The notes under the pieces were generated by a model. It searched no databases. It saw only the letters and a list, made by a program, of their open reading frames with translations, and had not been told where the DNA came from. Source: a virus (Duplodnaviria > Heunggongvirae > Uroviricota > Caudoviricetes). From it: DNA of 10,286 nucleotides. Each line of letters starts with the position of its first letter. Position 1 is the first letter of the stretch. The stretch lies in the IMG/VR virus record IMGVR_UViG_2740892231_000002, positions 1 through 10,286 of that record. The stretch is one strand, 5' to 3'. Of the stretch, positions 7,730-8,549 are shown one piece after another. The position numbers were made by a program, and so were the translations under genes.

Positions 7730-7742
7730 ATCGCCGAAAAAA

Positions 7743-7778
7743 GATCCCGCCACAAACATGAGCCGGGATCTTTGATTT
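7743..7778. terminator. Bidirectional intrinsic terminator
   Basis: Stem GATCCCG (7743-7749) pairs with CGGGATC (7764-7770) around a 14-nt loop, followed by TTTGATTT on the + strand and preceded by AAAAAA (7735-7740), which gives a U-tract for the minus strand. It lies between convergent operons. Confidence 0.6.
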
Positions 7779-7851
7779 ATATAGCCTACGAATCCGCAGT
7801 AAGAGAGGGGCAGACGGTTTATTCTAACACCGGAATGATGTGGGTAAAAGT

Positions 7852-8151
7852 TTATAAGAAATCGGTTTCATAACTTTGCCCACCATGATAGATACCGACA
7901 ATAAAGACTTTTCTGCCATCAACGGCAAAAGCAATAATCGTTCTGTGGCGGAAATGAGTTACCCGCATCCCCTGGCGAATATCATCGCGTTTATTGCCCC
8001 GATGCGGGAATGTAGAAAACCCATCAAGATAATCAAGAAGCGCATTGGCATAATTGTCAGCAATGATGTTCCCTGCTTTCTCCGTTATATATCTGTGCAG
8101 GTTGATTATTTGTTGTTCGGCCTCAGGAGTAATGATGACTTCATATGTCAT
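7852..8151 (-). CDS. parE: ParE/RelE-family type II toxin, 99 aa
   Basis: Six-frame ORF whose translation (MTYEVIITPEAEQQIINLHRYI...RKVFIVGIYHGGQSYETDFL) has the ParE/RelE toxin layout. It starts 5 nt after the antitoxin stop. Confidence 0.8.
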   Translation of the reverse strand: MTYEVIITPEAEQQIINLHRYITEKAGNIIADNYANALLDYLDGFSTFPHRGNKRDDIRQGMRVTHFRHRTIIAFAVDGRKVFIVGIYHGGQSYETDFL

Positions 8152-8156
8152 GCAGA

Positions 8157-8414
8157 TTACTTCCCGGATCGAATCGCGACGCGAACCTGTGAAATGGAGC
8201 GTCCGTTGTTTGGGTTTTCGCGGATAGAATCAAGAGAGGGGGCGGCTGAATGCGTTAACCACGCTTCGATTGCTTTATCGCGCTCATTCAGTGCGCGAAG
8301 CCCTTCACGAATGACCTCGCTTTCTGAAGCATAGGCGCCGGAAGCCACACGGGCGCGCACCATGTCAGCCATCTCGTTAGTTAATGTAATGCTGAATTGT
8401 TGGGTTGTACGCAT
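8157..8414 (-). CDS. parD: ParD-like ribbon-helix-helix antitoxin, 85 aa
   Basis: Within ORF 8157..8477 the likely start is the ATG at 8414 (MRTTQQFSITLTNEMADMVRARVASGAYASESEVIREGLRALNERDKAIEAWL), with GAGG about 7 nt upstream. Typical ParD/CopG-like sequence. Confidence 0.8.
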   Translation of the reverse strand: MRTTQQFSITLTNEMADMVRARVASGAYASESEVIREGLRALNERDKAIEAWLTHSAAPSLDSIRENPNNGRSISQVRVAIRSGK

Positions 8415-8549
8415 GGTAAACCTCACGGAGTAGGATAGAACACTATTCGATGATAGCACGCTGCCTGTTGACGACAACAGAAATCAGAGACAATATTGCC
8501 GCACGCCAGCCTGAACAACTGGCACCTGCTGCGCCAGCAGAGACAACCG
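8415..8549. promoter_or_regulatory. Divergent intergenic region: ParDE promoter (minus) and candidate rightward promoter TTGACG / AATATT (plus)
   Basis: TTGACG at 8468-8473 with about 17-18 bp to CAATATT. An imperfect palindrome CTATTCGATGATAG lies next to the antitoxin start and could be an autoregulatory operator. Confidence 0.3.

Follow-up and report, generated by a model that had tools for sequence, protein, structure and literature searches.

How does a toxin-antitoxin operon come to lie on the minus strand of a lambdoid prophage whose neighbouring genes are all read from the plus strand, and what might it do there? The locus lies within a 10,286-nt stretch of viral DNA (IMG/VR record IMGVR_UViG_2740892231_000002, positions 1 to 10,286; hereafter the window), which is the immunity-to-nin segment of a lambdoid, Shiga toxin (Stx)-type Escherichia coli prophage. 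An initial annotation had proposed that a ParD-like antitoxin and a ParE-family toxin at 7735-8549 form an independently acquired, autonomously expressed cassette, inserted between two phage operons and bounded by a bidirectional terminator on one side and a divergent promoter region on the other. The comparisons described below indicate that positions 7731-8499 very probably constitute a complete, self-contained type II ParD-ParE unit that serves as interchangeable 'moron' cargo in the toxin-antitoxin slot of the nin region. This 769-bp exchangeable cassette (minus strand) consists of a terminator, parE, parD and a promoter region.

Both genes belong to defined protein families. The antitoxin gene parD (8157-8414, minus strand; ATG at 8414) encodes 85 residues that match Pfam PF03693 (ParD_antitoxin; E 1.5e-7, 32.2 bits against a cut-off of 21), NCBIfam TIGR02606 (ParD family antitoxin; 53.1 bits against a cut-off of 46.2) and PHROG 6494 ('antitoxin'; 5e-56). 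The toxin gene parE (7852-8151, minus strand; stop codon TAA at 7854-7852) encodes 99 residues that match PF05016 (ParE_toxin; E 3.6e-10, 40.7 bits against a cut-off of 23) across profile positions 1-89 of 89, as well as PHROG 5232 ('toxin'; 4e-43). These family matches are far beyond chance, and the PHROG category of both families is 'moron'. The antitoxin gene comes first and the toxin gene follows directly downstream, with 5 nt separating the parD stop codon from the parE ATG. All neighbours of the pair, namely two Ead/Ea22 genes, a DUF551 gene, a 27-aa open reading frame (ORF), a hypothetical gene, a DUF968 gene and RusA, lie on the plus strand, and the antiparallel arrangement noted in the initial annotation is thereby borne out.

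ParD contains an N-terminal ribbon-helix-helix (RHH) DNA-binding domain at about residues 6-51, followed by a C-terminal tail that presumably binds ParE, an interaction for which the adjacency of the two genes in all 80 viral loci and in the Yersinia and Enterobacter homologues gives indirect support. Its nearest solved relatives are ParD1 (3kxe), the ParD proteins of 7ycv and 7b22, and the antitoxin of 6x0a. The ORF lister extended parD to a TTG at 8477, a codon that falls within the promoter described below. A plus-strand shadow ORF (7876-8334) overlapping parD and parE had no family match and was set aside as a gene. RefSeq already gives correct names to both products, a type II antitoxin of the ParD family and a toxin of the RelE/ParE family, and in the record of phage ArgO145 they are entered as the putative toxin and the putative antitoxin of a toxin-antitoxin system. 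A search of the literature found no study of this parD-parE pair.

Since PF05016 spans both the RelE and the ParE branches of the superfamily, the branch to which the toxin belongs was tested directly. A database search with ParE returned 34 cluster representatives, mostly from Enterobacterales (E. coli, Salmonella, Yersinia, Enterobacter, Erwinia) together with one Desulfovibrio. Alignment of 17 toxin sequences revealed a strongly conserved core, FPxRGNxRDDIRxGxRxTHFRHRT, which is intact in the window ParE, as are all 22 residues that are invariant in the alignment. When the alignment profile was used to search the PDB, only ParE toxins were retrieved (6x0a, 5ceg, 7ycs, 8c24). The AlphaFold model of ParE (pLDDT 83.4) predicts an N-terminal two-helix hairpin (helices 9-26 and 28-46) followed by a three-stranded sheet (strands 62-67, 71-78 and 81-89), the arrangement of a ParE-type fold. 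In a Foldseek search with this model, ranks 1-22 were all occupied by ParE-type toxin chains at template modelling (TM) scores of 0.71-0.80, including Mesorhizobium ParE3, Pseudomonas aeruginosa ParE, Mycobacterium tuberculosis ParE1 and ParE2, Vibrio cholerae ParE2, O157 ParE2, Caulobacter ParE1, PrpT and PfiT. The RNase toxins HigB, YoeB, RelE and YafQ ranked after them, with TM scores of 0.43-0.62. By every available sequence and fold criterion, the predicted pair is a ParD-ParE system.

The borders of the cassette were defined against prophages that carry hokD at the same place. Homology of the left flank stops at 7730 and homology of the right flank resumes at 8500, and many genomes break at both positions. 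In a hokD-type prophage the flank containing DUF551 and the 27-aa ORF is 88% identical to the window and the flank containing the hypothetical gene and DUF968 is 89% identical; between them, the cassette is replaced by 658 bp of unrelated sequence containing hokD and a small ORF. The coordinates of the initial annotation fit these comparative borders plus 50 nt of conserved right flank. The slot so delimited follows the 27-aa ORF and directly precedes the hypothetical gene, DUF968, RusA and Q. It holds hokD in most E. coli prophages, including those of S88 and an O157:H7 strain; in the Qin prophage of K-12, relB-relE-hokD-rem immediately precedes the homologue of the hypothetical gene and ydfU (DUF968). 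Among 5426 complete E. coli genomes, the parDE query was matched over at least 80% of its length in 324, the right flank in 4865 and the hokD block, at least partly, in 4729. The same-site comparison that the initial annotation had suggested in related prophages therefore shows hokD or relBE-hokD where the window has parDE.

To what extent the cassette was 'inserted' can be judged from the empty site. A 401-nt artificial junction, in which 7531-7730 was joined to 8500-8700, had no single-piece match in any of the 5426 genomes, and its best match has hokD between the two halves. Simple insertion into an empty site was dropped as an explanation on these grounds, and the absence of an empty junction points instead to module replacement in a cargo slot that is always occupied. 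The neighbours, which had been described as separate operons, most likely both belong to a single early-right (nin) transcription unit. The cassette ends showed neither convincing terminal repeats nor a target duplication; the only candidate for transposon-like ends, a 13-nt inverted match of 85% identity (7650/7662 against 8498/8510), was one of 23 pairs at chance level and was rejected. The simplest mechanism would be cassette exchange by recombination in conserved sequence on either side: on the left the 27-aa ORF, and on the right the beginning of the flank, where a CGCACG hexamer is shared. This hexamer (8500-8505) lies exactly at the right joint in every aligned context, whether parDE in the nin region, parDE in an early-left operon, an orphan parD or hokD. 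It may represent a recombination microhomology.

The cassette is not confined to this slot. At 96% identity (window 7646-8497) it is found in the early-left operon of the Stx2a phage ArgO145, near int, with an HNH gene and a hypothetical gene on one side and an antirepressor on the other. In another nin region it is preceded by HNH and a hypothetical gene in place of DUF551. Homologous pairs occur in Yersinia prophages, where they are antiparallel and in the early-left region, and in Enterobacter, where the pair lies in an island rich in integrase genes and insertion sequences. In all 80 IMG/VR viral contigs compared, parD is accompanied by parE, and the pair is opposite to every identified neighbour (hypothetical gene, DUF968, 27-aa ORF, DUF551, HNH), and the neighbours on the left vary. 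Thus, wherever the cassette has moved, it lies antiparallel to the host operon. An arrangement that is universally present and co-oriented, which would have spoken against independent acquisition, is excluded by these contigs and by the 324 of 5426 genomes that carry the pair.

Base composition was compared as the initial annotation had proposed. The GC content of parE is 42.0% (40% at third codon positions), against 51-55% in the flanks, and that of parD is 53.1%; this agrees modestly with the cassette having been acquired. Together with the exchange for the hokD block, the copy in ArgO145 and the varying left neighbours, it upholds the proposal that the pair was independently acquired. The unit has the marks of a moron or exchangeable cassette: a promoter and a terminator of its own, replacement polymorphism and atypical composition.

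The left end of the cassette is formed by a hairpin (7740-7773) with a 10-bp core stem pairing AAAGATCCCG (7740-7749) with CGGGATCTTT (7764-7773). The run of six adenines beside it (7737-7742) corresponds to six uridines after the stem on the minus strand, on which the hairpin has a predicted energy of -27 kcal/mol (z -3.84; none of 200 shuffles was as good). Read on the plus strand, the value is -18.1 kcal/mol (z -2.9) and the U tract is interrupted. The structure is therefore predicted to be a good intrinsic terminator for parDE, and a weaker one is plausible for plus-strand transcription arriving from DUF551 and the 27-aa ORF. The terminator is thus asymmetric: what had been called bidirectional stands for the minus strand and is qualified for the plus strand. 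The hairpin was missed by a consensus terminator scanner because its loop exceeds 8 nt. It is present in all aligned parDE cassettes and not in the hokD-type locus.

At the opposite end, a candidate parDE promoter on the minus strand (8450-8477) combines a -35 element TTGTCG (8477-8472), a 16-nt spacer and an extended -10 element TGcTATCAT (8458-8450). A Shine-Dalgarno sequence GAGG (8421-8424, minus strand) lies 6 nt upstream of the parD ATG and is conserved in a five-way alignment. Facing outward on the plus strand is a promoter-like site (8468-8497; TTGACG at 8468-8473, 18-nt spacer, AATATT at 8492-8497) with 9 of 12 consensus matches, which ends 2 nt short of the right border of the cassette. 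The -35 hexamers of the two promoters overlap within the palindrome CTGTTG-ACGA-CAACAG (8465-8480). ArgO145 has this overlapping pair at the corresponding position, as does a Yersinia prophage with a toxin of only 70% identity; in both, the outward site reads TTGACG-18-TATATT, with 10 of 12 matches. The divergent promoter region proposed in the initial annotation is consistent with this recurrence.

Between the -10 element and the Shine-Dalgarno sequence lies a 19-nt leader block, AATAGTGTTCTATCCTACT (8429-8447, minus strand), which spans the expected transcription start. In the five-way alignment of the upstream region the invariant or nearly invariant blocks are GTCGTCAA, the extended -10 core GTGCTA and the 19-nt leader AATAGTGTTCWATCCTACT. 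The leader is identical at 18 of 19 positions across E. coli phages, Yersinia and Enterobacter, against only 68-71% identity in the coding DNA of these loci. Of the evidence available, this cross-genus conservation speaks most strongly for a regulated promoter belonging to the unit itself, and with the Shine-Dalgarno sequence and the terminator it suggests an autonomous unit, as had been proposed. We infer from the same alignment that the 19-nt leader block is the preferred candidate for a ParD operator. The palindrome was downgraded as an operator, its left arm not being conserved in Yersinia; by our estimate, the chance of a 6+6 palindrome within about 85 nt is about 0.2, i.e. not rare.

The outward promoter-like site faces different genes in different contexts: an ORF6N antirepressor gene in ArgO145 and in Stx2a phages with an orphan ParD, a P22_AR_N antirepressor in the Yersinia prophage, and in the window the hypothetical gene, DUF968 and RusA (then the Q antiterminator and stx2b in the 99.9%-identical prophage of strain 2012EL-2448). 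A further promoter-like sequence on the minus strand (TTTACC-16-TGnTAGAAT, 7821-7848) lies directly past the parE stop codon, about 45 nt before the hairpin; a transcript of about 80 nt might arise from it. The scanner calls the site in ArgO145 as well, an uninformative recurrence since that copy is 96% identical, and Rfam returned nothing for it.

Family knowledge and the layout of the locus suggest how the unit would work. In a lysogen, with the phage early operon repressed, parD-parE would be transcribed constitutively from the predicted sigma-70 promoter at 8477-8450. Dimers of ParD, either alone or with ParE as co-repressor, would bind near the transcription start and repress their own synthesis, with the 19-nt block and/or the palindrome over the -35 element as candidate sites. 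The C-terminal tail of ParD would wrap around ParE and neutralise it, and the hairpin would keep parDE transcription from entering the upstream phage genes in antisense. Should parD expression stop, as when the segment is lost, recombined away or transcriptionally shut off, the labile ParD would be degraded, and the free ParE would be expected to poison DNA gyrase, leading to DNA damage, SOS induction and growth arrest. The payoff would most likely be stabilisation of the prophage segment, or addiction, as demonstrated for paaA2-parE2 of CP-933P, the closest experimental precedent; the exclusion of other phages is a possible further benefit.

Several observations weigh against this model. Toxicity, neutralisation, the gyrase target, autoregulation and the transcript ends are things that we infer throughout. 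The window ParE is only 14-24% identical to the solved ParE-type toxins, so its target could differ from gyrase, and that of O157 ParE2 is itself described as 'yet to be uncovered' (PMC8630535). The number of promoter-like sites in the window is not above that in shuffled sequence, and the left arm of the palindrome over the -35 element is not conserved in Yersinia. Finally, neither protein has a match in PADLOC-DB 2.0 at E<=0.01, so that a role in defence is without direct support.

Defence is nonetheless the function that the strongest competing explanation would give the pair: a module acting primarily in abortive infection or superinfection exclusion to guard the lysogen, with addiction secondary. 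Consistent with this idea are the position in a variable cargo slot of a prophage, the predicted expression of the unit from its own promoter in the lysogen, the resemblance in fold to PfiT of PfiAT, a prophage module that modulates phage production (PMC7264888), and the orphan ParD of many Stx2a phages (86% DNA identity), which could act in counter-defence, an idea raised in PMC12502783. Set against the missing PADLOC match, the lack of a published phage-defence phenotype for this pair in the literature searched, and the alternative cargo of the slot, hokD and relBE, which are classical addiction-type genes, this explanation appears possible but less likely. A link to phage development itself, in which the state of the toxin-antitoxin pair feeds into prophage induction and Shiga toxin expression, and the reverse, seems unlikely. 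In such a scheme the outward promoter could be controlled jointly by ParD or ParD-ParE through the overlapping -35 elements and palindrome, early-right transcripts made at induction would cross parD-parE in antisense and might halt the synthesis of antitoxin, and SOS triggered by ParE would reinforce the coupling; the result would resemble PfiAT in Pf4.

The remaining explanations concern what the toxin is, whether it is alive and how it arrived. That it might be a RelE-like, ribosome-dependent mRNA interferase, by which the cassette would arrest translation instead of poisoning gyrase, is suggested by the inclusion of RelE in PF05016, by the RefSeq name 'RelE/ParE family' and by the presence of true relBE in the same slot of K-12 Qin. 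The fold ranking and the PDB profile search both favour ParE, the RHH antitoxin encoded beside the toxin is of ParD type, scoring above the cut-off of TIGR02606, and the toxin has no match to NCBIfam RelE_StbE; we consider a RelE-type toxin very unlikely and rejected it. Many chromosomal and prophage toxin-antitoxin loci have decayed, and a derivative exists in which parD is orphaned and parE is replaced a few codons in, so the pair might be an inert relic, non-toxic or unexpressed, that hitch-hikes in the prophage. This is highly improbable given that both ORFs are full length, that the toxin retains every invariant residue of a family spanning E. coli, Salmonella, Yersinia, Enterobacter, Erwinia and a Desulfovibrio, that parD and parE remain together in all 80 viral contigs, and that promoter and leader are kept across genera. 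Least probable of all is that the pair is an ancestral, integral part of the early-right operon and not acquired cargo. The right neighbour is the same (hypothetical gene and DUF968) in 75 of the 80 viral contigs, but the orientation opposite to the operon, the sharp homology breaks at 7730/7731 and 8499/8500, the presence of hokD or relBE-hokD at this slot in most genomes, the occurrence of the cassette in another operon in ArgO145 and its varying left neighbours all speak for acquisition.

As an acquired ParD-ParE unit, the cassette can be compared with solved RHH ParDE systems, namely Caulobacter ParDE1 (3kxe), Mesorhizobium ParDE3 (5ceg/6x0a), V. cholerae ParDE2 (7r5a) and M. tuberculosis ParDE1 (8c24). 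It shares with them the two-gene operon with the antitoxin first, an RHH ParD above the cut-off of TIGR02606 ('CC2985'), a ParE fold at TM 0.76-0.79 and a promoter with candidate operator sequences. It differs in that the toxin is only 17-24% identical to theirs and belongs to a narrow, mostly enterobacterial clade (the 34 cluster representatives) with a core motif of its own, and in that the pair resides in tailed-phage genomes, not in plasmids or chromosomes. Other close known systems are carried by prophages. The hokD and relBE-hokD cargoes (K-12 Qin) occupy the same slot and likewise encode toxin-antitoxin or host-killing genes, but they belong to other families (type I Hok, the RNase RelE), are co-oriented with the phage operon and have a classical terminator end, whereas the parDE cargo is inverted and ends in a promoter region. 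PfiT/PfiA of the Pseudomonas filamentous prophage Pf4 is also a prophage-borne toxin of the ParE/RelE superfamily with its antitoxin (fold TM 0.76) and modulates the production of its own phage (PMC7264888, PMC13048266). Its toxin is 16% identical to that of the window and its host phage is filamentous, unlike the tailed phage here.

A second comparison can be made within the window itself, which carries another ParE module at its left end. A toxin homologous to ParE2 (265-552) is close to O157 ParE2 (PDB 5cw7, E 6e-56), and the adjoining antitoxin (553-744) is PaaA2 (PDB 3zbe, 9e-35; Pfam PF21217). Upstream of PaaA2 lie PaaR2-like helix-turn-helix (HTH) genes and divergent YdaS and YdaT genes, a gene set that constitutes the immunity region described for CP-933P (PMC8630535). 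In that O157:H7 prophage the paaA2-parE2 pair is addictive and stabilises DNA, and the toxin induces SOS, its precise target being open (PMC8630535). The PaaR2-PaaA2-ParE2 system (window 265-1565) resembles parDE in placing a ParE-fold toxin, AT-richer than its antitoxin, on a lambdoid prophage. Pairwise similarity is not detectable between either the toxins or the antitoxins, with no BLASTP alignment even at E<=100 for the two toxins of the window or for its two antitoxins. PaaA2 is without a DNA-binding domain and depends on a third gene, the CI-like PaaR2, in the immunity region, whereas parD-parE is a two-gene, presumably self-regulated unit of the nin region.

The initial annotation had described the ParD/ParE pair as unrelated to the other one. 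This holds at the level of pairwise alignment and not at that of family and fold, as both toxins match PF05016 and the fold search with the parE model retrieved the solved structure of ParE2 (5cw7). Its further statement, that the window carries two dissimilar ParE-family toxins with different antitoxin types, is correct, with an RHH ParD in one module and PaaA2 in the other. The known specificity of ParD-ParE pairs makes it very likely that the two modules are insulated from each other. The GC content of the 265-552 toxin is 44.8% and that of the 553-744 antitoxin 50.0%; both toxins of the window are AT-richer than their antitoxins and the surrounding phage genes.

Derivatives of the cassette that have lost the toxin are also known. 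Among the matches listed, more than 30 records of Stx2a-converting phages contain an orphan parD with 86% DNA identity and the same promoter; in one example, Stx2a phage LC727840, the locus (1799-2860) is homologous to window 8138-8497. In these phages parE is cut after a few codons, and a lipoprotein-like gene and a HigA-family antitoxin are present instead. Orphan ParD and HigA antitoxins have been reported in phages of enterohaemorrhagic E. coli, with a toxin-countering role suggested (PMC12502783). The orphan ParD could neutralise the window ParE.

The left edge of the slot is marked by the 27-aa hydrophobic ORF MSWPEAFSNVGIAMAVALVVYSICRWG (7646-7729, plus strand), a linker that borders the slot and lies outside the cassette cargo. 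Its ATG overlaps the stop codon of the DUF551 gene (7119-7649, plus strand) as ATGA, with AGGAGG 7 nt upstream. Its protein sequence is conserved in ArgO145, in hokD-type loci and, apart from an in-frame 6-nt deletion, in ETEC1748. The ORF adjoins the cassette in 69 of the 80 IMG/VR contigs and forms the left edge in both the parDE and the hokD versions of the slot. No significant match was found in Pfam, NCBIfam, PHROG or PADLOC, the sole Pfam match being DUF7220 at E 0.05, far under the cut-off. The ORF carries no annotation in NZ_CP027586. On the right, the hypothetical gene (8550-8828, plus strand; 92 aa) lies upstream of DUF968 and RusA.

From position 3725 to its end, the window is 99.8% identical to a prophage of E. 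coli strain 2012EL-2448, where Q, three tRNAs and stx2b come after the same genes. The immunity segment at 162-1943 gave no megablast match to this otherwise near-identical prophage and thus represents a different allele. The immunity region of the 2012EL-2448 prophage has one annotated HTH repressor gene; in the window there are two tandem PaaR2-like ORFs (713-1234 and 1194-1565), which are 40% identical across their C-terminal 75 residues. Three runs of ten N (2915-2924, 3246-3255 and 3714-3723) interrupt the replication (DnaT-like/O) gene. The segments flanking each run map to overlapping coordinates of the reference prophage; the runs appear to be joins made across a repeat during scaffolding or assembly rather than real sequence. 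An Rfam scan of the whole window returned nothing relevant.

Taken as annotation, the result is routine: the pair is a canonical RHH-ParD/ParE module, already annotated in RefSeq, in PHROGs and in the ArgO145 record. It is modestly useful in defining a cargo slot of the nin region in which unrelated toxin-antitoxin cargoes (hokD, relBE-hokD and parDE) swap at base-precise borders, in showing that one Stx-type prophage can hold two mutually dissimilar ParE modules, and in drawing attention to orphan ParD copies in Stx2a phages that could neutralise the window ParE. More speculatively, an SOS response to released ParE, if it does occur in an Stx lysogen, could give the cassette an influence on the induction of Shiga toxin phages.

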